Positions 799 to 62,099 of a stretch of DNA of 64,000 nucleotides are shown one piece after another. Position numbers and translations under genes: made by a program. The stretch is from positions 128,001-192,000 of the forward strand of contig CBDFLQ010000006.1 of assembly GCA_965249275.1 (NCBI GenBank). The letters are read 5' to 3'. Below the pieces are notes generated by a model that worked only from the letters and a program-made list of their open reading frames with translations, did no database searches and was not told where the DNA came from. This stretch comes from Dehalococcoidia bacterium (GTDB lineage: Bacteria > Chloroflexota > Dehalococcoidia > Plut-88900). Positions within the stretch are counted from its first letter, which is position 1. Every line of letters starts with the position of its first letter.

Positions 799-828
799 TT
801 GACCTTATATGAACACTTGTGCTATATT
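799..828 (+). promoter_or_regulatory. Sigma70-like promoter with LexA-like box (element E1)
   Basis: TTGACC (799-804), GAAC-ACTT-GTGC (811-822), TATATT (823-828). Confidence 0.7.
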
Positions 829-1318
829 AGCCTCCAGGTCCCGACACCCCACGTCGGCCCTAATCAGGAAAAGGACCAAGGAGTTCCATGAGTCGCATGG
901 CCCACACATCGGCCCGTCGTTACCGAGCGGTATGGGACCGCCCGGCCACCGACACGCGCCTCCTCCCCAATCCCTATTCGCCCTGTCCCCATCTCAACAC
1001 CCACTACAAGCGCTGCCCAAAGGCCCAACGCCTGTGCCTTCGCAGCGATCAATCATCGTCCCGCCCCCTGCATGGAAGGTCCCCGGACAAATCAAGGCAC
1101 GCCCTGCTGCAGGGCAGCCGCCTCCGCATCAGCGCCCCCGTCGAGGGGCATACTTACGTCGCCGACGTAGTCCTTGCCGGCGAATCCCAACAGTCGGATG
1201 AGCGCCGACTCAAAACCAACGCACCATTTAAGGATTCCACCGTCGTCACAACCGGAGAACTTCCGACTACGAACGCCGGTCACTGGTCCACGCTCCTATC
1301 CCTTGGGATGGTCGAGCA

Positions 1319-1595
1319 CTTCTGGTGGACGGGACTGCCCCACAGCGAGAATTTCTCGCGTCTCGTCCACATCCCCTCAGAAGTTAGGGGCTATCGCACA
1401 GCCGTCGCCGATGTCAAACCTCCGTTGAGGCGGACACCGCGCATCGGTGCAATGGCTGGGCGCTTCTGGTGGTCGAGACTGCCCCACACCGAGATTCCCT
1501 CGCGTCTCCTCCACGTCCTCTCAGAAGCTCGGGGCTGTCGCAGAGTCGTCGCCGATGTGGAACATCCGCTGTGGCGGACAATAGGCATCGGTGCA
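1319..1595 (+). repeat. Diverged tandem duplication, period 144 bp
   Basis: CTTCTGGTGG at 1319 and 1463; GCATCGGTGCA at 1441 and 1585. Confidence 0.85.
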
Positions 1596-1728
1596 GGCGT
1601 CGCCGTCTTCTTGCGCAACCGTCCGGGACCTTCCATCCCCTCCCCCTCTGCCCCTCTAACAACCAAAACAGGTGTATACTCCCTCCATCCGGCATCCGGC
1701 CTTAGTCACCGACACGGGAGCAAGCGCC

Positions 1729-13066: not shown

Positions 13067-13670
13067 CTGTATTATCCGTCTCGACTTAGTATTTGGGTAT
13101 GCGAGGCTGGTCTATTACATCAAAAACCGGGGCCTGCCGGTAAAGCGGGGGCCCCGGTGAGCCACCGAGTTGAATGTCTAGGGGAATTATAATCTGTTTT
13201 GTTATAAAAATCCATTGAACCCCCTCAGTCAGTCTCACCGCCGAGGCGTGAATCCACCCCCAGTGGCACACCCGCTCACCTGAATGCCTCCGTCATTCCG
13301 GCCGGCGAGAGCCGGAATCCATCCCCGGTGGCGGGGCCGTGTCCGGTCCCCTCTCCCGTCGGAGGGAGAGGGGTAGGGTGAGGGTGATTCTCCCACCCCT
13401 CCCCCCGAGCCCCGGAATCCATCTCCAGTGGCAGGGCCGCTCACCCTGAGCGCCGTCGAAGGGTCGAGCGGGGGGGGGAGGCCCCGCACTGCCAAACCGT
13501 CGCACCCGTCCAACACCCCCCTCCCCCCTTGGCAACGATATATCAGTAAAACAGGGTGGGTGGGCGGGTACCAATTAAACGGGGTGGCCGGGAGGCGTCC
13601 TACCCCCTCTCCCTCCGATGGGAGAGGGGTGGGGTGAGGGTGACCTTTCCCCAAAAGTGACACGAACCCC

Positions 13671-13700
13671 TTGACCCAATCGAAACACATGTACTATATT
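13671..13700 (+). promoter_or_regulatory. Sigma70-like promoter with degenerate LexA-like box (element E2)
   Basis: TTGACC (13671-13676), AAAC-ACAT-GTAC (13683-13694), TATATT (13695-13700). Confidence 0.65.
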
Positions 13701-14618
13701 CGCCCCAGGCTCCGACCTTGTACGTCGGCCCTAATAAGGAAAGGACTAAAGGAGTCCCATGAGTCGCACCAGCCTAATCAGGCCCCGTCACACCCGAGCG
13801 GTATGGAACCGCCCGGCGCCCGACACGCGCCTCCTCCCGAGTCCCTCTTTCAACACCGTGTCCCTCGGATTCCCTCTACCAAGCGATGGAAGGTCCTTCG
13901 ACTGTCGGCGGCATTCTCCCTCTAAGGGCCTTTGCCGATATATCGCCCCCTCATCCGGGCGTTTGCTCCTCGCCGACTTTACCCTCGCCGAGGATATATC
14001 CGCGTCTTTTGACGCGTTTGCCAGGGCCTTAGTGCCCTTATCCGGCTCCACCACCCGCTGTAACTGGAGATTCTCCTTCGGTCCACCGCGGCATCGAGTC
14101 GTTATGCCGTCCCACGCAGCGGTCGAGCGCTGCCGCCGGACGGATAATCCCCACCCAGAGACGCCCTCGACTTCGGTATGTCTCCTCCGACATGCGTGGG
14201 GATATCGCAGGACAGCCGTCGACGCCACCGGCGTCGGCGCAGGTGTCGTCGTCTTCCTGCTTACCAGTCCCGGACCTTCCATCGCCTCCCCTTCCTTTGC
14301 CCCATTCCCAGGCTCCGTGAGGAATCTCGGACTTGCCCACTCACCTATCTCTGCCCTCCCAGCCACTCAGCCGAAATCCAGGTGGGGAGGCCCCTCACCC
14401 CGCCACCCACGAAAGGAACCCGCCTATCTGCTCACATCCCCCACTCTCCCAACCGAGCAGCCAAAGAAAACGTCCCTTTTCCAAAACAATCAAAATTCGT
14501 GTCTCTAACCGAAATTCAATCAACCCCCCCATCGGGACAACCCCCACAAAAGGAGACCGCCTGCTAGCCCATACCCCCCACTCACCCCCCACAATCGAAG
14601 ATCCGCCTCAGGAGGACT
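13671..14618 (+). other. Dispersed structured intergenic element E2
   Basis: 5' part homologous to E1. Perfect 14-bp long-range stem 13883-13896 / 14272-14285. 32-nt tail identical to that of E4. Confidence 0.55.
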
Positions 14619-14793
14619 AAATATCGCACCTTCCGGGGCCTGGCATCTGGCCCTCACTGAACGGGTCAAAGGGACAGCGTACTGGCGAGAAGGCACCCTT
14701 TACCCTCATCAACCTTCCCCTCCCGGTTGACGCCCACGCACCCGCTTATTACAGTTGTCTCCCGAGACGACCATCCCGAAGGGAGTACCCGAC

Positions 14794-17495: not shown

Positions 17496-19808
17496 TCAAG
17501 GCCTAGCTTGATTGAATTTTGAGAGCCATGCAAGATCACTCTCTAATGCGGGGCGACGCCAATATATGCGTCTCACTTCCGATACAAATATCGGATCCGT
17601 ACTTGATACCGCGTGCCAGATTCTTAATGTTTCTGTGAGTGCTTGAATGTCCTCCAATTCATCATATGCGAGAGCAAGTCCCCGGTAGATTCGCGAACGT
17701 GGAACTGAATATTCTTCTGGAGGAGCCTTTAGTGCCCGCCGGAATAAATCTACCGCAGCGTATCGAGCGCTCTTCGCCTGTGAGAATTGGTTGAGATTGT
17801 CCAAGGTCTTGGCTTCTCGCGACCTTAGGTAGCCCGCGCGGTGGCAACGTCCATCTGATTCCTCACACCTTTCGAGTGCCAGTTGCGAAACTTTGATCGC
17901 GTTCCTCCACAGCCCTAGAAGATTCTCCTCAGTATCCCTCCAAACCGCTTCCTCCGCAGAACGGATTTCCAATTCCGTCCAGTGGAAATACATCTCTGGT
18001 TTTCTGGGCCCGAACTTATGGGCGTTCTTGAAAGCCTCCTGAGCCTCTGACCGGAATTGTTGAGGGTTCCTAGCATATATCCATCCTAGCATTCCATACA
18101 GGTCAGGATCGTCTCTTAGCTCTCCAGTCATTGCTAACACTAATTTGTTGGTGGCAGCCTCTATTCCAGAGTGATCGTGTTCCTCTTTAGCATCCCTAAT
18201 CGCCTTCCCTATCGCCAGACGCTTTGCTTCCGTTGTTCGCTCTCCTGTTAGGCCCTTATATGCTGACACCGCCGATAGTAACTTCGGGTGCTTCGCGAAT
18301 GTGCTTCGAACTAAACGCCGCGTATTGGAATTGATGCTGTAAGCAGGCTCGGAAGTCTCTTTATTATCCACGCGGTGTATCAGTCCACTACTTAATAAGG
18401 TAGTGACACCGCTTTCCACATCATCGTCTGCCAGCCCCCCCACCTGGCTAATCTCAACAACGCGCAGAGGCCGATTGCCCACTGCAATTGAGATAAGCGT
18501 ATCTTCAGTCACACCTCCAAGGCGTTCCAACTGCCGTCGCAACGCATAAACGCGGGCCCCATCTCCTTTGCGGTGCTCCCATTCTTCAATTGCCTTCTTA
18601 ACCCCTACCAGTGCCGCATAACGGATGAGGTCATCGACGAACAGGGGATAGCCTTGTGTGACAGCTCGGATTCTAACAATGTTCTTTAGACATACATTTT
18701 CGTCGACGCCATATTCACCTGCGCGCCCAGCAATGAAGTTTTGGAGAGTCTCGTCGTCAAACGGAGGTACCTCCATGTAACGTATTCCTGGAATCTGTTG
18801 CCGCGAGGTAAACAAAACCTTGCTTGCGGTAGGGCGCAACTCGAACAGCAACATTTCCGCAGTATCCTGATCGTCAATCACTGTATCTAGATCGTCAACG
18901 ATCAGCAGACAGCGTGTATTCCTCAGTTCGGAGAGCATTTCATCTTTCGACACGTCGTAGCGATCACTTCCGTATAGTGCATTCACAATGCGATTACAGA
19001 ATGTAGGCACATCCTCAAAATCAGGTATCCGCTCTTTAGTAGAACGATCTACGTATTCAATCTTCTTTGCAGTGAGCCACACGATCGCGTCAATGTAATC
19101 AGACGCGATGTCTCGTATTTCCTGAGCGAACTTATGGGCCAGAGCGCTCTTCCCAACGCCACCATATCCCCACACCATGCGCTGTTTAGAGTCACTGGTA
19201 AACCAGTCCAACAACTCCCTCAATTGCTCTGATCTTCCTAGGAATTCGTCATAGATTTCGTCATGCGGGGGCAATTGAACCTCAATGGGTCTACCGCCCC
19301 AAGGATCAACTCCCGAAAGTAACGAGTCCAGAATGTCGTGAAACTCTTTCCCTATCGGGGAATTGATTGCATCCAGTAGTATTTGTGCGTTTTGGATAAA
19401 CCGGATTAAATCCACGCGGCGAATGATGTGTTCTTTGCGGCGATGCGCAAGGTTATGTCTGAGTTCTGTAATCTCTCCCAGATATACTTTCACTCGCTCT
19501 TGCTGACCCAATAAGCAGGAGAAAATCTTCCAATTACCAATGACAATGTTAGAGAGATGCTCAATGCCGAACAGTTCTTCATCAGATTTTCCCATGTCTA
19601 CGACCCGCATAGGGTTGTTCAACATCTTCTCTACGCGTAGGAACTCTTCCTCCTTAAAGTGTCTTCGCACTCCCTCCTTTAGCCAGTCATCTCCAATGGC
19701 CATCTGTAAGTTCTTTACTATCGGCTCATGGAATCCATCTAAGAAATCCAGTAGTTTCTCGTTGGCAAAGTCATTTATGTTCAAGATTGTTAGCCCCCTA
19801 TACCACAA
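17496..19808 (-). CDS. Swt1-like HEPN + STAND (NB-ARC-like) NTPase + wHTH + TPR-like protein; candidate defence protein
   Basis: N-terminal ELRHNLAH (RxxxxH), FLGRSEQL, Walker A GYGGVGKS, Walker B LLIVDD, LFTSR, GYPLF, helical C-terminus. Visibly lower GC than flanks. True start may be TTG at 19784. Confidence 0.75.
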   Translation of the reverse strand: MWYRGLTILNINDFANEKLLDFLDGFHEPIVKNLQMAIGDDWLKEGVRRHFKEEEFLRVEKMLNNPMRVVDMGKSDEELFGIEHLSNIVIGNWKIFSCLLGQQERVKVYLGEITELRHNLAHRRKEHIIRRVDLIRFIQNAQILLDAINSPIGKEFHDILDSLLSGVDPWGGRPIEVQLPPHDEIYDEFLGRSEQLRELLDWFTSDSKQRMVWGYGGVGKSALAHKFAQEIRDIASDYIDAIVWLTAKKIEYVDRSTKERIPDFEDVPTFCNRIVNALYGSDRYDVSKDEMLSELRNTRCLLIVDDLDTVIDDQDTAEMLLFELRPTASKVLFTSRQQIPGIRYMEVPPFDDETLQNFIAGRAGEYGVDENVCLKNIVRIRAVTQGYPLFVDDLIRYAALVGVKKAIEEWEHRKGDGARVYALRRQLERLGGVTEDTLISIAVGNRPLRVVEISQVGGLADDDVESGVTTLLSSGLIHRVDNKETSEPAYSINSNTRRLVRSTFAKHPKLLSAVSAYKGLTGERTTEAKRLAIGKAIRDAKEEHDHSGIEAATNKLVLAMTGELRDDPDLYGMLGWIYARNPQQFRSEAQEAFKNAHKFGPRKPEMYFHWTELEIRSAEEAVWRDTEENLLGLWRNAIKVSQLALERCEESDGRCHRAGYLRSREAKTLDNLNQFSQAKSARYAAVDLFRRALKAPPEEYSVPRSRIYRGLALAYDELEDIQALTETLRIWHAVSSTDPIFVSEVRRIYWRRPALESDLAWLSKFNQARP

Positions 19809-20110: not shown

Positions 20111-20140
20111 TTGACCTTACCTGAACATCCGTGCTACTAT
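20111..20140 (+). promoter_or_regulatory. Sigma70-like promoter with LexA-like box (element E3)
   Basis: TTGACC (20111-20116), GAAC-ATCC-GTGC (20123-20134), TACTAT (20135-20140). Confidence 0.7.
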
Positions 20141-20810
20141 CCCCACCGTTCGAACACCACCCTAACTATCTCAAGGAGGAACCAAAAACCCAGGGAAGCC
20201 CACCCGACCCACCCGAGGACTCAACGTCCAAGCCCATCCCAATGGCCCTCACACGGGGCCCGCGGCTCAAGCGAAAGCGGAACGTCCGCCTATGGAGAAA
20301 CGCCATCTCCTCACTCCATCGGGTCCCGTGCCCCTTCCCTACCCCCAGGCGATGGAAAGACGCCCTGGTTCGCTATCGTTCCATGTGAGGCTCCTAACGG
20401 AGATGCCGCTCCTTCAAGCGGAATAGCGGTCGGATAGGCCCGGCGCCGAGGTCCTCTCGGTACACCGTCCGCTTAATGAAGCCGGGAGCCGGTGGTCTAC
20501 GCGCTCCGGGTCGCACCGGCAAACTTGAACACACTACGCCTGCAGAGGCCCGGCATCGGACGCTGGACGGGCCTCCTGGCCGCCCTATAGCGGTGCAGCC
20601 AACCCCCGGAGTCGGGCTCGGACCTGCTGGCCCTGAAGGTCCCTGCCCATGTCCAGTGTATACAGGGCCAAAGGCCGCAGCAGCGGCAAAAGCGGGCCGG
20701 CGCCCTTGCCCCAGGGCGTCGGAGCGCCCGAAGCACATGAACAGGGGCAGCGTCCAGCAAGCGTCTTCCATCGCCAACCTCCCAGACAGAACAATCAAAA
20801 CCCTACCCCC
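20111..20810 (+). other. Dispersed structured intergenic element E3
   Basis: About 200 nt of the 5' part is highly similar to E4. Long-range stem 20348-20363 / 20761-20775. Confidence 0.55.
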
Positions 20811-20938
20811 CACAACTGAATAGAAACCCGGCGTGTCACTAATCTACTGGACGAGTTCCCCCAATTGACCCCCCACCCCCGACATGCTACCATCCCACCT
20901 AGTGACCCCTATCCCGTGGTAGGGGTCGCATTCGGATA

Positions 20939-31401: not shown

Positions 31402-31533
31402 CCCCCTGCCCTTGTCCTCCTGTCAATCTGAGGCTCCTTCTCTGTAATTCCGAGGCTCCGCGAGGAATCTGGGACTTGCCTAGCTTCGTCTCTCCTCTGT
31501 ATGTCGCGCCCCATCCACCCTTTCTCGCCCCCA

Positions 31534-32229: not shown

Positions 32230-32706
32230 AGCCCCAATCCTCCGGCCAAACGCAGGGAGGACCAATTGGGTGGGTGGCCACCACAGGCCCCGAATCAGGT
32301 GCAAATCCGCCTACGGAACACCGAATGGTCTCTAGAGCGGAATCTGGTGCTTGCCCCTCACCTCGGGCCCGCCAAAGGGCCGAATAAACACACACCATTA
32401 ACCCCTGTCATCCCGAGGCTCCGCGCTGCAAGTCCGCCTTTGGCGGGAGGGATCTAGTACTTACCCCCTCACATCCTTCTCTGCCATCCCCTTTCCCTCA
32501 ATGAGCCCTTTGCGCAACTCACCAAGGATTACCGGGGATTGTCTTGTGAGATCATGACAGGAATCCCCTCACACTGTTCCCAATTAAGCGCGAGTGCATT
32601 CGGGGTGGTGTAAAAAAGAAAAGTGAGCCTAGCTCAACTCCTCTCCCTCATCGGAGGGAGAGGGTGACCCAAAAATAAAGAGACGTTTAGTCCGTGGAGT
32701 CTGGTT

Positions 32707-33475: not shown

Positions 33476-35533
33476 TTACTGTGCCCATACGTTGAAATTC
33501 GAAAACTCGGGATAGCTATAATGGCTCAGGAAGAAGTCTCCCATCGCGCTAACACCGCCAATATCTTGGTTATGCCCCAAGTCTAGGCTTGTTACAAGTT
33601 GGTCGTTAATGAAGAACCATCCGGATACCTCCACGGCGATCAACAAAAGCCGGTTTCGACTCGAGCCTAGTCCCGCTCCAGAACTCCGTAGGGATCCCGA
33701 CGCTACTTCAATATATTCAGAGTCACTTAACCCACGGGTATAGTGATACCATCGCCCTTGCCCGATCACACCGATAACTTCCAACCGCCCAGATACAGGG
33801 TTTCTAACCATAAACCCATAGCTCCATTCCTTCCCTTGCGGGTTGATGAACTCCGCTTCCACCACCAGATCGCGAGTCCATACACCGCTCGTGTGGACCC
33901 CAATGAGTCCCGGCTCCTTTTCCAAAACCCCAGCCGCAGGCCCGTATTGCTTCTTCAGCTCGTATCCCTTAAATCCCTCGTAGCGGGTCACACCTCCGGA
34001 TATCTCATCCCCTGTATATGCTCCTGTAATGACCGCGATATCACCAGCATGAGCCGCCATTTTCAGGTCAACAATCGCCACGAAATCACCGTTCACGAAA
34101 AACCATCCCCGTTCTCCAATGGTCACAACCATCAGGTGATTCCGGCTCCCGGCACCCGTATTAAGGTTACTGACCGTTCCCGCACCAATACGCTCATATG
34201 GTGCATCTGCCCCAACATTCACCGCCCAGCCCCCGTTGCTCGAAACCACAAATTGTAGGAACGGGGCAGCATCATCCCGCTTATCACTTCGCACTATGAA
34301 ACCATAGTCCCACGAGTTAGACGAAGCCGAGTAAGGATTCACGAACGTAGTTTCAACAACCGTATCGGAAATCGTAACGCCTGCATATTCAATCTTTATG
34401 AAGTTGTCGAACGGGTCATGTCGCAGTTCCCCGTTCAAGGGGCCAAAATCGTATCCCGCACCCGGCGCTGGAGTTGGAGTAGGGCGAGGCGCGGGCGTTG
34501 CAGTCGGCACCGCCGTCCCGGCCCTTAGCGTTGGTATTCGATACTGAACCGTCACCGCTGAGATCGCGAAATTCAGTCCTTCAACTGGTCTCCCACTTTG
34601 TGATTCATCATAGCCAAAGGTGTTGATGCCCAAAATCTGGCCTGACATCGAGAGCATTGGGCCACCGCTGTTGCCGGGATTGATGGCAGCATCGGTTTGA
34701 ATGACATCACTTAGGAAACGAGAGTCGTAGCGGACAGCCGAAACAATGCCACGAGTTACGGTGGCCTCACCCGAGAGTCCCAAAGCGTAGCCGATAGCCA
34801 CTATCTCGTCCCCCGCCTCCAACCCTGCCGCATCCCCGAACTCCAGAGCTGTGAAATCGCCGCAACAGATGCTTACAACCGCCAGGTCCCGAGTTGCATC
34901 TACCCCCAACACCGTCCCGCTATAAGTCGTCGAATCGTCTACGGTCACACTCACCCGCGATTGCCCTCCCACTACGTGCTCATTTGTCACCACAAATCCT
35001 GTCCGGCCTTGCGTGTCGAATATGACCCCCGTACCGCTGGCCGTGCTGCTGGTTATTCTCTCAACGGCTGGCCGCGCCCGTCTAACCATCGCACTAATCG
35101 GCTCCGAGCTGGGAGTGGCAGTGGGAACCGGCGTAGGCGTGACTGTAGGCACGGGCGTAGGTGTGGCTGTAGGCACAGGCGTAGGTGTGGCTGCAGGCAC
35201 GGGTGTGGGTGTGGCCGTAGGCAGGGGCGTGGGCGTGGTTGTAGGCACAGGTGTGAGCGTGGGCGTAGGCACTGGGATGAATGTAGCCGTTGGCAAAGGC
35301 GTGGGCGCAGGCATAGGCGTAGGGGGAACGGCAGCCATAGTCTCCGCCATCCGGGCATTGACGGTAGCGTCGATGTCCGGGAGAGGGGTCGGCGTAGCTG
35401 TCGGCAGGGCTTCCGCAACCGCCGTTCTCACCTCTGCACTTACGTCGGTAGTGGGCGTAGGGGCTTCACCCGACCCGCTGCACGCGCCTATCACTAGCGC
35501 CAGGGTGATTGCCACCACACCAAGGACTCTCAT
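33476..35533 (-). CDS. Lipoprotein with Pro/Thr-rich linker, trypsin-like (S1C) serine protease and repeated beta-sandwich domains
   Basis: IGAC lipobox, PTATPTPV repeats, TNEHVV, DLAVV, TDAAINPGNSGGP; two similar C-terminal blocks (F.NP...W.YGF.VR). Confidence 0.85.
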   Translation of the reverse strand: MRVLGVVAITLALVIGACSGSGEAPTPTTDVSAEVRTAVAEALPTATPTPLPDIDATVNARMAETMAAVPPTPMPAPTPLPTATFIPVPTPTLTPVPTTTPTPLPTATPTPVPAATPTPVPTATPTPVPTVTPTPVPTATPSSEPISAMVRRARPAVERITSSTASGTGVIFDTQGRTGFVVTNEHVVGGQSRVSVTVDDSTTYSGTVLGVDATRDLAVVSICCGDFTALEFGDAAGLEAGDEIVAIGYALGLSGEATVTRGIVSAVRYDSRFLSDVIQTDAAINPGNSGGPMLSMSGQILGINTFGYDESQSGRPVEGLNFAISAVTVQYRIPTLRAGTAVPTATPAPRPTPTPAPGAGYDFGPLNGELRHDPFDNFIKIEYAGVTISDTVVETTFVNPYSASSNSWDYGFIVRSDKRDDAAPFLQFVVSSNGGWAVNVGADAPYERIGAGTVSNLNTGAGSRNHLMVVTIGERGWFFVNGDFVAIVDLKMAAHAGDIAVITGAYTGDEISGGVTRYEGFKGYELKKQYGPAAGVLEKEPGLIGVHTSGVWTRDLVVEAEFINPQGKEWSYGFMVRNPVSGRLEVIGVIGQGRWYHYTRGLSDSEYIEVASGSLRSSGAGLGSSRNRLLLIAVEVSGWFFINDQLVTSLDLGHNQDIGGVSAMGDFFLSHYSYPEFSNFNVWAQ
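35110..35330 (-). repeat. Coding tandem repeat, about 24-bp unit (PTATPTPV)
   Basis: GTAGGCAC(A/G)GGCGTAGGTGTGGCT-like units on the + strand. Confidence 0.85.
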
Positions 35534-35629
35534 TTGTTTCCCCAACGGCTCCTATGTATAAGCCTGCTCCAGGGTCCGCGTAATATCCCGTATTCTCTCA
35601 ATCATCCCGTCTCCCCCACCCCCGACTCC

Positions 35630-42109: not shown

Positions 42110-42385
42110 CCCACCTCCCTCCCTCCCCCGTAGGGGTAGATCTCGTGCCTACCCTCCCGGACCTTCTTCCACCCACCTCGCTCTCGGCAGACTCAACGCC
42201 AACTACCCTGTCATTCCGAGGCCACGCGAGGAATCTAACGCCCTTCATTAACAATCTGTTTCAGGAAACCCCCTCACCGAATGGCCCCCGAATCCTCTCT
42301 TCCTCAACCAGTGTCCAGAGAGATCAGTAACACTCGTTCGGGGACATAGGTAACACATTCCATAGGGTCACGTTGCAATGCTCCT

Positions 42386-45983: not shown

Positions 45984-46967
45984 TTGCTGAATAAAGCCGG
46001 GATTACCGTCACGTCCGTAGTACTCGCCGTCCTGCTGATGTGTATCGCCTGTGGCCCGACACCCCCCACCCTCCCCCTCCTCGACGCCATAGACCAGGAG
46101 GATACGGATGTCGTCCGGGCCCACATGGAGATCGGCACAGACCCCGACAAGACATTCATCCCTCCGGGCATCCCATTCACCGGGGCCTCGGCCCTCCACG
46201 TTGCAGTCCTTAAGGACAACCGAGAAATAGTCCAACTCCTCCTCGATAACGGCGCAGACATCGATATAAGGGCGCTGGACGATTCCGAGGGCTCACCTCT
46301 CGAATGGGCGGCCTACTTCGGGCTCAATGACATGGCCGTCTTCCTCGTAGAGTCTGGGGCAGACATCAACGCCAGAAACGCTTACGGCACCACGCCCCTT
46401 GACGCCGCTTATGCCAACAACCCCTTCATCCCCGAAGAGGATCGCAACCGGTTCAACGCAAACCGCGACCTCATAAGTGCATATCTGATTGAGGAGGGCG
46501 CCGAGTCCACCACCCCGGTCCTCACCCTCCTGGACGCCATCGATCAGGGCAACGCAGACGCCATACTGGCTCACATGGAGTCCGGCACGAACCCCGACAA
46601 TATCTTCATCCCGCCGGGACTTCCCTTCGCCGGCGCCTCAGCCCTCCACGTCGCAGTCCTTAAGGATAACTAGGAGATGGTCCAACTCCTCCTCGACAAC
46701 GGTGCCGACATCGAAATAAGGGCATTGGACGAGTTCAAAGGCTCCCCTCTGGAATGGGCTGCCTTCTTCGGCCTCAAGAACATGGCCGTATTCCTGGTAG
46801 AGTCCGGCGCCGGCATCAACTCCAAGAACGCCTACGGCACAACCCCCCTCGACGCCACCTCCTCCGACAACCCCTTTATCCCCGAAGAGGACCGCAAGCA
46901 GTTCGACGAAAATCGCTTCTTCCTAAGGCAATACCTCTCCGAAAAAGGCGCCCAGTCCGGCCGGTAA
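45984..46967 (+). pseudogene. Ankyrin-repeat lipoprotein with two 150-aa modules, interrupted by in-frame TAG (46671-46673)
   Basis: IACG lipobox; SALHVAV..IVQLLLDNGADI, SPLEWAA, TTPLD. 450-bp internal duplication. TAG aligns with CGA in the first module. Confidence 0.7.
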
Positions 46968-49270: not shown

Positions 49271-49425
49271 AACACGACTCCTTTGGAGAGCATTCCTGAG
49301 ACTTGTGGGTAACGGGCACAGCCCCAACTAATCGGGGCCTCTGGCCTCGATTCTATACCCGCCCGCGAGGCTCGGTCAAACCTGTGTACTCGTTCGGTAG
49401 ACTAGCGACGCGCCGGGTTTTATTC

Positions 49426-50118
49426 AGTCCTCCTGAGGCGGATCTTCGATTGTGGGGTTTTGGGTGTTGGTTGTTTTGTTGGGGGGGGGGGTGGCGATGG
49501 AAGACGCCCATTTGGCAGAGCTGCTTGTTCGTGGACTTGCAGCCATCATGCCCTGATGCTAGATGGTATACACGGACAATTCTCGGGCCAGACGTCCGGC
49601 AGAGGCTCCTTATGGGGGCTGTATGCACGTGGGGGCATGTCGGGGCCAGGTATCCAGCTGTGCGAGGCCCCACAGCCTAACTAATAGTGTCCAAGTTCGC
49701 CGGAAAAGGACAGGAGCGAATATCCTCCGGGCACCCCCGCGCGGTAGCGCCAATCTCCAGCAATGCGGCCCGACGTTCGAGACGGTTCTCCATGGGGGTT
49801 ATGCGGTCCGCGGAGTGTATGCTCGGGTCACCCTTGATGCAATCTCCCGTACAGGGAGCAGAGTGGGAGCGTGAAGGCCAGGGCGTCTTTCCATCGCCTG
49901 ATGATCAGGGAAGGGGGCACGGGACCCGGTGGGGATGAGGAGATGGCGCCGGTCGCTTGTGCCGCGGGCCCCGTGTATGGGCCGTTGGGATGGGCTGGGG
50001 CGTTGAGTCCTCGGGTGGGTCGGGTGGGCTTCCCTAGTTTTTGGTTCCTCCTTAAGGTGGTTGGGTTAGGTGGTCCAGACCTGACTACAATATAGAACAT
50101 AAGTACTTAACATGTCAA
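49426..50118 (-). other. Dispersed structured intergenic element E4
   Basis: Reverse complement is homologous to E3. Long-range stem 49881-49898 / 49493-49509. Confidence 0.55.
50089..50118 (-). promoter_or_regulatory. Sigma70-like promoter with LexA-like box (element E4)
   Basis: On the - strand: TTGACA, 6 nt, GTAC-TTAT-GTTC, TATATT (box reads GAAC-ATAA-GTAC on +, 50095-50106). Confidence 0.75.
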
Positions 50119-50411
50119 GAGGGTGATGCACTCCTCTATGTGAACGGGTTCAACCTGCTCCTCTCCTACCCCCTCTCCCTCATCCCCGTGCCCCGACATG
50201 TGAATCCATTCCACGGGCGGGGCCGCTCACTTGGTCATCCTTAGTCTGCTAAACGTTACAATTCCATTACATTGTTGGTGTTTCAGATAAACCTGCTGGG
50301 GTGTATTGAGGAACGGCGCTTCTCCCCGTCATTGTCCCTCTATCCTTCCCTGTGATATACTCGCAGACGCTAATTTTAAGGCTATACGGGAAGGGAAAGA
50401 GCAACCTAAAC

Positions 50412-52531: not shown

Positions 52532-52712
52532 ACCGACCTCTTTTGTGTGTCATTCCGCGGCCCCGCGAGGAATCTAAGGCGCCTCTCTCACAACCCACGC
52601 CTGCCAGTGCGAGAAACGCTTATTGTGGGCGTCACTTTCCCACCCCTTGCCCCTTCCACCCCCACGCTATTAAACTTGCCCCCATCACCTCTCCGCCTGG
52701 AAGGCTATTGCT

Positions 52713-57327: not shown

Positions 57328-57541
57328 TCCCACACCCTCTAACCTGTCATTCCGATCCCTCCACCCTGTTATTGTCATTCCGAGGCTCCGCGAGGAATCT
57401 AACGGGCAAATCCATCGCTCACGTCCTTCATACCCCCTCACCTCGAACTACAGACGCAGTCCCGCCTATGGCCCATCCCCTCCCCCTTCCTGTTGTATAA
57501 TCAGCCCGTCGGCGGCCCCATAAGCAAACGGAGGTACCCTC

Positions 57542-58771: not shown

Positions 58772-58935
58772 TAGATACTTCCGCACAACCCAACTCTCTC
58801 TTGATGTGACCTCTGCATAACCAGTGTTGGAGGGGCCCGGGGCCGCTCGTGCTGAGGCTCTCGAAGTATGAGCGGGGGGTGGAGTTTGAGTGATCTGGAT
58901 GGCACTAAGGACTCTCTGATTGCAAGACAACGCAC

Positions 58936-59685
58936 ATGAGGCTTGAAGGAAAAGTAGCCCTCATATCCGGCGGAGCCCGAGGCATCGGTGGCGCTGTCGC
59001 CCGGCGATTCGTCTCCGAAGGGGCATCCGTAGTCATCGGCGACGTCCTTATCAAAGAAGGCCGACTCCTCGCCAACGAAATCCAGAAGTCTGGCGGTGAG
59101 ATAACCTTCTCCCCCCTCGACGTCACCTCCGAATCCTCCTGGGCCGATGCCGTCTCCCTCGCCATCGACCGCTACGGCAAGCTGGACATCCTTGTCAACA
59201 ACGCTGGCATCACCAAGCGTGACCGCATAGAGGACGAGACCCCCGAGAATTGGGACCGTATCATGGAGATAAATTCTAAGGGCGTGTTCCTCGGCACCAA
59301 GGCCGTCCTTGACGAGATGAAGCGCCACGGCAACGGCTCAATCGTCAATCTATCCTCGTCCTACGGCCTGGTCGCTAGCCCCAATTCCGCCATTTACGGT
59401 GCATCCAAAGCAGCCGTAAAACTCCTGACGAAGTTCACGGCCATACAGAACGCGACCTTGGGAATTCGGGCCAACTCCGTCCACCCGGGCCCGATCAACG
59501 CCCCCCTGATTCAGGAGTTTTTCGGCTTTCCCGAAAAATTGAAGATGCTGGCGTCACTCGTGCCCATGGGTAGGATCGGTGAGGCCGAGGAGGTCGCCAA
59601 CGCAATCCTCTTCCTCGCATCCGACGAATCTTCCTTCGTCACCGGCTCCGAGCTTGTCATCGATGGCGGCATCACCGCCCAATAG
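58936..59685 (+). CDS. Short-chain dehydrogenase/reductase (copy 1)
   Basis: [23 protein letters not shown]. Confidence 0.92.
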   Translation: MRLEGKVALISGGARGIGGAVARRFVSEGASVVIGDVLIKEGRLLANEIQKSGGEITFSPLDVTSESSWADAVSLAIDRYGKLDILVNNAGITKRDRIEDETPENWDRIMEINSKGVFLGTKAVLDEMKRHGNGSIVNLSSSYGLVASPNSAIYGASKAAVKLLTKFTAIQNATLGIRANSVHPGPINAPLIQEFFGFPEKLKMLASLVPMGRIGEAEEVANAILFLASDESSFVTGSELVIDGGITAQ

Positions 59686-59796
59686 CCCCGACCTAAAAGA
59701 ACACGAAATGTCATACAAAAGCCCAACCAGCCTCGTATCCGGAGATGACGTCTAAACAGGCGTAGGCAAATAGTTCTCACCTGTGGAGTAACCAAC

Positions 59797-60546
59797 ATGA
59801 GACTCGAAGGAAAAGTAGCCCTAATATCCGGCGGGGCCCGAGGCATAGGCGCTACCGTCGCCCGACGCTTCGCCTCCGAAGGTGCCTCCGTAGTCATCGG
59901 CGATGTATTGCTGGAAGACGGCCAACTCCTTGCCGACGAAATCCAGCAGTCCGGAGGTGAGATAGCCTTCACCCCTCTCGACGTCACTTCCGAGTCCGCG
60001 TGGAGCGAAGCTGTGGCCCTCGCCATCGCCCGCTACGGCAAGCTCGACATCCTCGTCAACAACGCTGGCATCATCAAGCGTGACCGCATAGAGGACGAGA
60101 CCCCCGAGGTTTGGGACCGCACCATGGAAGTCAACGCCAAGAGCGTATTCCTCGGCACCAAGGCCGTCCTCAACGAGATGAAGCGCCACGGCAACGGCTC
60201 CATCGTCAACCTCTCCTCCACTGCTGGCCTTGTAGCTGGGCCTGCCACCGCGGCCTATGGGGCATCAAAAGCCGCCGTGAAGCTCTTTACCAAGTCCACA
60301 GCAATACAGAACGCAAAGCTGGGCGTCCGGGCCAACTCGGTTCATCCAGGCCCTATCAACGCCCCTATGATGCAGGAGATCATAGACATTCCCGATAAGC
60401 ATGTGGAGAATAAGGCCCGGGTGCCTATGGGCAGGTTCGGAGAACCCGAGGAAGTCGCCAACGCCATCCTCTTCCTCGCCTCCGACGAGTCCTCCTTCGT
60501 CACCGGCTCGGAGCTGGTTGTCGACGGCGGCATTACCGCCCAGTAG
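59797..60546 (+). CDS. Short-chain dehydrogenase/reductase (copy 2)
   Basis: Same length (249 aa) and motifs as 58936..59685. Confidence 0.92.
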
Positions 60547-60569
60547 CCCTGACTGGTTATACTATTAAC

Positions 60570-62008: not shown

Positions 62009-62099
62009 CCAGATCGATTCTATAGCAGCGCAGGTTATATCACCTGTCATACCGAGGCCCCGCGAAGAATCTAAAGCATCCTTCTCCCCAATCAACCCT

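Follow-up and report, generated by a model that had tools for sequence, protein, structure and literature searches.

A stem-closed cassette and the promoter-carrying repeat around it in a genus of Dehalococcoidia

What is enclosed by a long helix whose two arms lie about 400 nucleotides (nt) apart on a bacterial chromosome, and at which level, RNA or DNA, does such a helix act? The question is raised by four elements, here called E1 to E4, in a stretch of 64,000 nt from a Dehalococcoidia bacterium (assembly GCA_965249275.1, contig CBDFLQ010000006.1), which we refer to as the window. It corresponds to C6:128001-192000 of the source assembly (G000; 2.9 Mb, 7 contigs). A preliminary description of the window, made from the sequence alone, had seen in the paired arms of these elements the closing helix of a strand-specific RNA, as opposed to the terminal repeats of an ordinary MITE (miniature inverted-repeat transposable element). 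The analysis presented here reveals that the long helix is genuine, that the cassette between its arms can be exchanged while its surroundings remain, and that the whole is carried by a larger piece of inserted DNA flanked by a 5-base-pair (bp) duplication. The account that we favour, although it may equally well prove wrong, is that the stem closes a swappable cassette inside a promoter-carrying, non-autonomous MITE-like unit that lands just upstream of host promoters.

The closing stem and the family it defines

The arms of E2, GCGATGGAAGGTCC and GGACCTTCCATCGC, are perfect complements when read directly from the window, and past an internal loop of three by two nucleotides (TTC/CC) they are continued by a second helix of GACTG with CAGTC. 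The arms of E1, E3 and E4 were likewise found where the preliminary description had placed them, with E4 lying on the minus strand. The left arm of E1 is longer by a single C, and an extra A is common to E3 and E4, which in each of them sits in the left arm of the sense strand. Both arms do vary jointly between subfamilies, as had also been described, and these subfamilies fall into GGTCC, AGACGC, AGAAGCC/AGAGGCC and GGT(T)CCCGGAC classes. The general anatomy of the closing helix consists of 14-15 bp, a small asymmetric loop or bulge, and then another 5-6 bp. The positions are as follows.

13883..13904, plus strand: left arm of E2, with helix 1 (13883-13896), the TTC loop and helix 2 (GACTG, 13900-13904)
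13905..14264, plus strand: interior of the E2 cassette, a run of local hairpins including CGGCA (13909-13913) with TGCCG (13933-13937)
14265..14285, plus strand: right arm of E2, with helix 2 (CAGTC, 14265-14269), the CC loop and helix 1 (14272-14285)
1072..1088, plus strand: left arm of E1, one C longer than the right arm
1621..1636, plus strand: right arm of E1
20348..20363, plus strand: left arm of E3, with the extra A
20761..20775, plus strand: right arm of E3
49881..49898, minus strand: left arm of E4 on the sense strand, with the extra A
49493..49509, minus strand: right arm of E4 on the sense strand

The helix exceeds chance. With at most one mismatch, the arm motif GCGATGGAARRNC matches the window seven times against 1.77 expected, a number that none of 100 shuffles reached, and all seven matches are arms of E1-E4. 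What could not be recovered is the proposed inward extension of the E2 stem, CGGCGGCATT with GGTGTCGTCG, which requires four G-U pairs; it is absent from the minimum free energy (MFE) fold of E2 and also from the consensus fold of 21 related copies, an alignment of E2 with 20 full-length relatives from five sister genomes that are ~70-74% identical. In place of this G-U-rich extension, the consensus pairs CGGCA locally with TGCCG, a hairpin of invariant pairs, all five of them intact in 20 of the 21 sequences.

Such stems belong to an abundant family. A strict search for arm pairs returned 32 of them in G000, spaced 361-565 nt, and blastn extended the count to 74 loci, 64 of which are at least 280 nt long and fall into 15 clusters (13, 12, 10, 7, 6, 4 and 4 copies plus 8 singletons), with an identity within clusters of 87-97% over ~400 nt. 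E3 and E4 belong to the clusters of 10 and 6 copies, and E1 and E2 each stand alone as a singleton of G000. Sequence similar to E2 was present in all eight sister genomes of the genus, and in none of the genomes searched outside it (0/3 from other genera of the family, 0/19 from the rest of the class). In this line, a scan of one genome per species found the two-arm pattern confined to chromosomes of metagenome-assembled genomes (MAGs) of Dehalococcoidia bacteria, and the phage and plasmid collections gave no match to the E4 or the E2 unit. No Rfam family reached its gathering score across the 64-kb window, relaxed thresholds between 13650 and 14800 gave only chance-level matches (E at least 0.1), and there is neither tRNA nor tmRNA in the window. 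A literature search limited to main articles found no description of the family, which as far as found is restricted to one genus of Dehalococcoidia MAGs.

The inserted unit and its exchangeable cassette

The cassette, ~400 nt long and rich in hairpins, is one module of a larger unit of ~770-900 bp, where a terminal repeat, a promoter, a leader, the stem-closed cassette and a C-rich, G-poor tail follow each other on the sense strand. A stringent sigma-70-type promoter (TTGACN, 16-19 nt, TAYWWT) is found on the sense strand 181-286 nt before the left arm in 51 of the 64 copies, against a single copy in 64 with such a promoter on the antisense side. The leader spans ~190-250 nt and carries AAGGAG(G), in a B type with AAGGAGG and an A type with AAGGAGTCCCATGAGTCGCA, the second one occurring in 13 copies of G000 that include E1 and E2. 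These conserved leader and tail modules surround cassettes that differ from each other. Among the GC-skew bins of the window, only that containing the minus-strand E4 is strongly positive, indicating that the C-richness moves with the element. At its two ends the unit carries short and imperfect terminal repeats, TGATCCCGTTC at one and GAACGAGTACA at the other, together with a subterminal pair, GTGACA(T)C and GTGTCAC. The activity of the promoter, the processing of its transcript and the strand that is used are all inferred.

That the whole unit is inserted DNA was shown at the E4 locus, the spacer between the aminotransferase gene and rpsB. In the sister genome G003 this site is empty and reads GGAGAGGAG, GAGGT and TTGACCGAG, with TTGACC adjoining GAGGT; in G000 the same spacer reads GGAGAGGAG, CAGGT, 768 bp of insert, CAGGT again and TTGACCGAG; and in G005 only a stub is left, consisting of the repeat and the terminal 9 nt of the insert. 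Read on the minus strand from 50152 to 49385, the insert starts with TGAACCCGTTCACATAGAGG, continues through promoter, leader, cassette and tail, and ends in CTACCGAACGAGTACA. The features of this and the other units of the window are listed below.

49385..50152, minus strand: whole mobile unit of E4, 768 bp, TGAACCCGTTCAC to CGAACGAGTACA, delimited by sister-genome comparison
50153..50157, minus strand: target-site duplication of E4, 5' copy, CAGGT
49380..49384, minus strand: target-site duplication of E4, 3' copy, CAGGT, followed by the host -35 box TTGACC (49379-49374) and -10 box TATAGAAT (49357-49350)
50089..50118, minus strand: predicted promoter of the E4 unit, TTGACA with TATATT
13671..13700, plus strand: predicted promoter of the E2 unit, TTGACC, 18-nt spacer, TATATT (10 of 12 consensus matches)
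13750..13761, plus strand: A-type leader of E2, AGGAG followed by ATG (13759-13761)
799..828, plus strand: predicted promoter of the E1 unit, TTGACC, 18-nt spacer, TATATT
20111..20140, plus strand: predicted promoter of the E3 unit, TTGACC with TACTAT
20865..20893, plus strand: native ribF promoter, TTGACC with TACCAT, directly past the 3' end of the E3 unit
14727..14755, plus strand: native promoter of the fumarase/aspartase-like gene, GGTTGACGCC with TACAGT, kept in sister genomes without any repeats

In G000 as a whole, 15 unit 5' ends were located, and for 10 of them a canonical 3' end could be identified at a distance of 734-897 nt. These 10 pairs correspond to nine distinct sites since two are variant copies of one locus. 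Six of these sites show exact 5-nt direct repeats (CAGGG, GCGGA, GCATT, CACCG, CAGGT and CTCCC), one a 4/5 match, one a shifted 4-nt repeat and one none. The surroundings of the 3' ends were taken by eye from 35 regex matches, of which 15 unrelated ones were set aside. Among the 20 canonical ends that are left, TTG occupies +6 to +8 in 12 and an exact TTGAC is present in seven, with -10-like boxes ~17 nt beyond. The unit thus tends to end at a point 5 nt upstream from a -35-like box of the host, a placement by which its own promoter is aimed at the host gene. According to a home-made gene caller, 47 of 63 downstream genes are co-oriented with the unit, compared with 22 of 63 upstream genes. 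At the E2 site, the spacer between SufB and the fumarase gene measures ~80 nt in G004 and G007, ~360 nt in G005, ~660 nt in G001, ~1150 nt in G003 and ~1.7 kb in G000, and the native fumarase promoter is kept in the spacers of G003, G004 and G005 and in the window (those of G001 and G007 were only sized). This represents a lineage-specific gain at the E2 site, in support of the mobility of the unit.

The second property of the unit is that the cassette between the arms is exchangeable while leader and tail remain. At the E3 locus, the upstream modules, the promoter, the leader and the tail are common to G000 and the closely related G002, and between GGCGATGGA and TTCCATCGCC the former has an AGACGC-class interior of ~410 nt and the latter an unrelated GGTCC-class interior of ~310 nt. 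The left boundary of this swap lies right at GGCGATGGA, and the right one ~30 nt past the right arm. A second case is found within G000 itself, where the 9-kb contig C4 and the region C7:585-586 kb have common flanks and a common GCGGA repeat around different cassettes; C4 possibly represents a variant strain included in this MAG. Moreover, cassettes of the E2 type are found behind A- and B-type leaders alike. The simplest reading is that the exchange occurs by gene conversion between paralogous units, for which the arms, the leader and the tail would provide the homology.

Some further observations concern individual cassettes. The one in C4 is 99% identical to the cassette at C7:119766-120275. 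E1 contains a tandem duplication of 144 nt (window 1308-1595; copies 1308-1451 and 1452-1595, 81% identical), each copy of which resembles the 3' half of the E2 cassette. At the site of G003 that is orthologous to E2 (L009 800-1200), the same promoter and A-type leader precede a different stem-closed domain of ~330 nt, which contains 60-nt tandem repeats and is closed by CCAGCGCTCCCTCT and AGAGGGAGCGCTGG, and a similar domain follows an A-type leader at C6:~222450 of G000.

Folding, reading frames and rival explanations

The preliminary description had preferred a strand-specific helix, of RNA or single-stranded DNA, to plain terminal inverted repeats. The folding of the element and its G-U pairs were therefore examined, and neither supports a choice of strand. 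E2 does fold far better than its shuffles, as had been predicted, yet it does so on both strands, with -187.5 kcal/mol (z -7.44) on the plus and -200.4 kcal/mol (z -7.86) on the minus strand. Separate dinucleotide shuffles of the four elements gave sense/antisense z values of -3.8/-4.7 for E1, -7.7/-8.6 for E2, -2.8/-4.5 for E3 and -1.8/-2.4 for E4; only three of the 64 copies have their lower MFE on the sense strand, and the RNAalifold energies of the 21-copy alignment are -110.95 for the sense and -123.4 for the antisense strand. As for G-U pairing, which had been thought to work on the sense strand only, the arm mismatches compatible with it number 24 on the sense against 46 on the antisense strand (77 copies with recognisable cores; 7 of 84 lacked them and were dropped), and pairs predicted in the consensus folds of both strands comprise 13 G-U cells versus 8 A-C cells. 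Because both strands fold equally and the G-U counts are not biased to the sense side, neither thermodynamics nor G-U pairing provides a valid argument for a strand-specific RNA. Nor is the joint variation of the arms a proof of an RNA-only constraint, given that the subfamilies may stem from different founders and that any hairpin would need matched arms. The local hairpins show compensatory changes, such as GAGAC/GTCTC to GGGAC/GTCCC, or GCGTC/GACGC to GAGTC/GACTC and AAGTC/GGCTT, with double changes at 8 of the 92 consensus pairs versus 1.3 in column shuffles (0/500 reached 8). These hairpins appear to be maintained, a signal compatible with either strand and either type of molecule. An RNA-level role of the stem is nevertheless plausible on grounds other than those originally given, namely the sense-side promoters, the fixed orientation of the cassettes and the compensatory changes in some of the local hairpins.

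Could the arms be transposon ends themselves? Arms as the terminal repeats of an ordinary MITE were considered and rejected, there being no flanking duplications, no clear inversion and the same upstream and downstream modules around every family. A more elaborate version makes them the terminal inverted repeats of a separate MITE nested within the unit, which would strongly prefer the leader site and whose subfamilies would be the different interiors; we regard it as unlikely. Several unrelated-looking interiors with the same 14-15-bp arms are what it would predict, blastn homology between subfamilies does end sharply at the arms, the left edge of the G000/G002 swap coincides exactly with GGCGATGGA, and equal folding of both strands fits a symmetry at the DNA level. 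However, 58 of 77 copies have no duplication directly outside the arms (16 share 2 nt, two share 3 nt and one shares 4 nt), an absence that the preliminary description had anticipated and that is indistinguishable from a shuffled-partner control (64.3/77). The cassettes keep a constant orientation relative to promoter and flanks in every family, except for 1 of 12 copies in family 1, which is truncated and ambiguously called, and the flanks of the arms are non-random, every family being set between the same upstream and downstream modules. A leader free of cassette was not found, the left arm following the leader hairpin GGGTCCCGTGCCCC..TTCCCT in 23 of 23 cases, and the search of G000 for an autonomous element bounded by arms 600-6000 nt apart recovered only neighbouring separate copies, with no gene enclosed. 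The right boundary of the swap beyond the arm is likewise at odds with a nested MITE, as are the GGTCC-class interiors, which share an architecture with compensatory differences and not unrelated content. In the contigs of four runs, E2 had low and the flanking modules very high depth and no contig bridged a precise excision, a result treated as uninformative. The conserved asymmetric bulges, the folding of both strands and a cassette exchange bounded near the arms would also suit a different kind of DNA site, an imperfect palindrome recombining as folded single-stranded DNA or cruciform in the manner of attC or REPIN sequences, whose extrahelical bases would set the orientation and allow the exchange of cassettes. 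With such systems the unit has in common the imperfect palindrome, the conserved extrahelical bases, the fixed orientation and the cassette-like exchange, but it differs from attC sites and from REPINs with their RAYT transposases in that single copies are dispersed in promoter units with arms ~400 nt apart and form no arrays. Moreover, a search aimed at this enzyme alone found no Y1 (HUH) transposase of the RAYT/IS200 type (PF01797) in any of four genomes (G000, G002, G004 and G007, three of them closed), and the swap again passes beyond the right arm, all of which makes this possibility very unlikely.

Two further explanations look for the function in the transcript or in its product. The elements could be free-standing structured RNA genes, with strand-specific selection on the helix and a processed or circular RNA of ~400 nt, spread by gene duplication. 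Their sense-oriented promoters and fixed orientation fit this idea, and so do the compensatory changes in some hairpins, the C-rich, G-poor sense flanks that flip with the orientation of the element and the conserved bulge, which in E3, E4 and the E2-like copies is always on the left arm of the sense strand. It becomes improbable in the light of units that are insertions with duplications and empty sites, of interiors that are freely swapped and of an open frame that reads through the A-type copies, besides the lack of strand preference in folding or G-U counts and of any Rfam family, and the bare advantage of E4 over its shuffles. The open frame itself leads to the last alternative, extremely improbable in our judgement, according to which the A-type units (E1, E2) encode a basic protein rich in proline, arginine and serine and the helix is incidental to the gene. 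In all 13 A-type copies, a Shine-Dalgarno sequence and an ATG are followed by a frame that stays open for 216-409 codons. In 12 of these, frame 0 is free of stops over 700 nt, with 1-7 stops in the other sense frames and 2-12 in the antisense ones; in the thirteenth, the three sense frames contain 2, 15 and 4 stops. Internal repeats are multiples of three (144 nt in E1, 60 nt in the G003 cassette), and 68 unnamed open reading frames (ORFs) of 205-436 amino acids (aa) in metagenome assemblies align, being translations of such elements. The diversity of the three codon positions is nevertheless flat (0.225/0.232/0.258), with no third-position excess; Pfam has no match for the internal open frames, and a codon-usage gene caller does not pick the A-type frames. 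The conserved residues coincide with conserved helix nucleotides, substitutions are not conservative, and of 21 copies of the same cassette behind B-type leaders, 15 are interrupted by stops in every frame. To judge from these sequence features, the A-type frame is not protein-like, and stops may be selected against while the peptide itself is not under selection, for instance to keep ribosomes on the transcript. In any case the elements will mislead gene callers, as the 68 database ORFs show. The frame in E2 is the following.

13759..14508, plus strand: 249-codon open frame of E2, running from the leader ATG across the whole stem-closed cassette, with no family match

The stop-free frames at 888-1928 and 13759-14508 and at 11 more loci have a conserved Shine-Dalgarno/ATG start and share the peptide MSRTSLHRPRR.RAVWDRPA.GTRLLP.

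The favoured account, that of a stem-closed cassette within a MITE-like promoter unit, combines a DNA level and an RNA level. The unit as a whole is flanked by a duplication, exists in many small dispersed copies and has no transposase gene inside, and would be mobilised in trans by a DDE (rve-type) transposase. This type of mover is suggested by the TG...CA-type ends and the 5-bp duplication, two such families of insertion sequences (IS) being multi-copy in G000, with 11 and 8 copies. The genome has 11 copies of an rve-type transposase of 320 aa, with TGTA...TACA ends and the 5-bp duplication ATTCC, 11 copies of an IS5-type transposase of 317 aa that duplicates CTAG, and eight copies of an IS481-type transposase of 394 aa. 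Once in place, the stem may act in the transcript made from the promoter of the unit, pinching the cassette off as a closed domain, and, as in Correia elements, might offer a long double-stranded site of the kind cut by RNase III, an enzyme that G000 encodes. On the DNA side, the conserved arms together with leader and tail would serve as homology for cassette exchange between copies. Termination by Rho at the C-rich tail is an idea only. The RNA-binding domain of Rho was not found in G000, probably reflecting an assembly gap and not a loss, as it is present in five of five closed relatives, and its presence or absence is no evidence either way.

Several points weigh against this account. No autonomous partner with the ends of the unit was found in G000, an 87%-complete MAG, where all 15 5'-end motifs lie in short units or are unpaired, and the resemblance of the ends to those of the 11-copy rve-type IS is only ~50%, a weak lead to the mover. 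The two ends of a unit are themselves modestly alike, 7 of 10 positions in E4 (TGAACCCGTT versus TGTACTCGTT) and 8 of 11 between the commonest type-1 end strings, which were compared directly and not through a computed consensus. The 5-bp duplication and the preference for -35 boxes derive from one type of 5' end (15 ends, 10 paired), the orientation of neighbouring genes depends on a crude gene caller, and the E2 unit has no canonical 3' end, so that its outer limits are undefined. With regard to the RNA level, the equal folding of both strands and the G-U counts mean that no sequence feature demands such a role, the covariation signal is modest (slid controls gave 1-6 against the 8 observed, the copies are related, and the covariation term is -0.69 kcal/mol), and in the 13 A-type units, E1 and E2 included, the open frame runs through the stem, which translating ribosomes would therefore melt.

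Relatives of the unit and its possible meaning

Two other dispersed repeats accompany the units in the window. One of them, a hairpin GTCATTCCGAGGCYCCGCGAGGAATC followed by TAGGACTTGCCC, occurs at 536-575, 31442-31471, 32405-32425, 42208-42237, 52547-52576, 57372-57401 and 62044-62073, and elsewhere in G000 it is a landing site for IS, with an rve-type IS inside it (duplication ATTCC) and an IS5-type one at CTAG. The other is a hairpin of CCCCTCTCCC and GGGAGAGGGG followed by TGGGGTGAGGGTGA, at 726-766, 13347-13387, 13603-13643 and 32639-32664, often just upstream of unit promoters, and the three sampled copies of the IS481-type IS (of eight) lie inside or beside this repeat. The minus strand encodes at 17496-19808 a protein of 770 aa that combines a Swt1-like HEPN domain at its N terminus with an AAA_16/NB-ARC NTPase. 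The GC content of this stretch is low (47-50% as compared with ~60%), and the gene resembles STAND-type defence genes and may have been acquired. Within the minus-strand ORF 33476-35545 there is a tandem repeat with a period of 24 nt, seen at 35088-35321 as eight in-register GGYGTGGCTGTAGGCACRGGCGTA-like windows of 72 nt stepped by 24 nt (the last by 18 nt). Adjacent paralogous segments are found in 58929-60553 (58929-59228 with 59790-60089, 84% identical; 59560-59692 with 60421-60553, 86%) and in 46063-46812 (46063-46362 with 46513-46812, 79%), and since they overlap listed ORFs they may be tandem gene duplicates.

Correia elements are ~100-155 bp long, compared with the ~770-900 bp of the unit described here. 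They belong to a group of bacterial MITEs with sigma-70 promoters that includes MITEAba12, BrickBuilt, QMITE1, SonMITE_1 and, in Neisseria, the Correia elements (CREE/NEMIS), whose transcribed hairpins are a substrate of RNase III (PMC10969869). As described there, these elements resemble the unit in being multi-copy, non-coding and intergenic, mostly just upstream of genes, and in their sigma-70-type promoters and target duplications; they are moved in trans and give transcripts with very stable stem-loops (PMC10969869), as would the unit. The differences lie in the architecture. The Correia hairpin is made of the terminal repeats of the element, whereas the long stem described here has an internal position and encloses a cassette that can be exchanged, and the terminal repeats of the unit are short and imperfect, unlike the hairpin-forming Correia ends; cutting by RNase III, described for Correia, would extend to the unit by analogy. 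The duplication also differs, comprising in the unit 5 bp of any sequence beside a -35-like box. With IS of the IS3/IS481 type (rve, DDE) the unit has in common the TG...CA-type ends and the 5-bp duplication, but it lacks an internal transposase, its ends differ from those of the 11-copy IS, and no full-length partner was found in G000. Another parallel is offered by putative mobile promoters, near-identical promoters upstream of unrelated genes within one genome, to which the present unit adds a defined vehicle, a duplication-flanked set of leader, cassette and tail with an insertion point set relative to the host -35 box (PMC3575422). Altogether, we file the unit as a promoter-bearing MITE-like repeat, whose distinguishing traits are the internal stem-closed swappable cassette, of which the literature search found no description for bacterial MITEs in the portions of the sources it covered, and the insertion next to -35 boxes.

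A more far-reaching reading, which we find quite unlikely, would turn the units into a promoter-homing platform, with more than 60 promoter-driven cassettes per genome cut at the stem, by RNase III or an enzyme like it, into stable trans-acting RNAs of ~400 nt, or with an RNA that guides the element to sites 5 bp upstream of -35 boxes. Within that reading, the guiding would be akin in spirit to bridge or omega RNAs working with a DDE transposase, and the stop-free frames of the A type would represent a second, translation-dependent mode.

If the favoured account of a mobile, promoter-carrying unit with a stem-closed cassette holds, dozens of mobile copies would lie in fixed orientation beside host -35 boxes in a single genus. 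Each copy would supply the gene behind it with an additional strong promoter and with a leader that is long and structured, a means by which the expression of many housekeeping genes could be rewired at once; the neighbours in the window are fumarase/aspartase-like, ribF, aminotransferase and GrdB-like genes. These elements account for spacers that measure 80 nt in some species and 1-1.7 kb in others.

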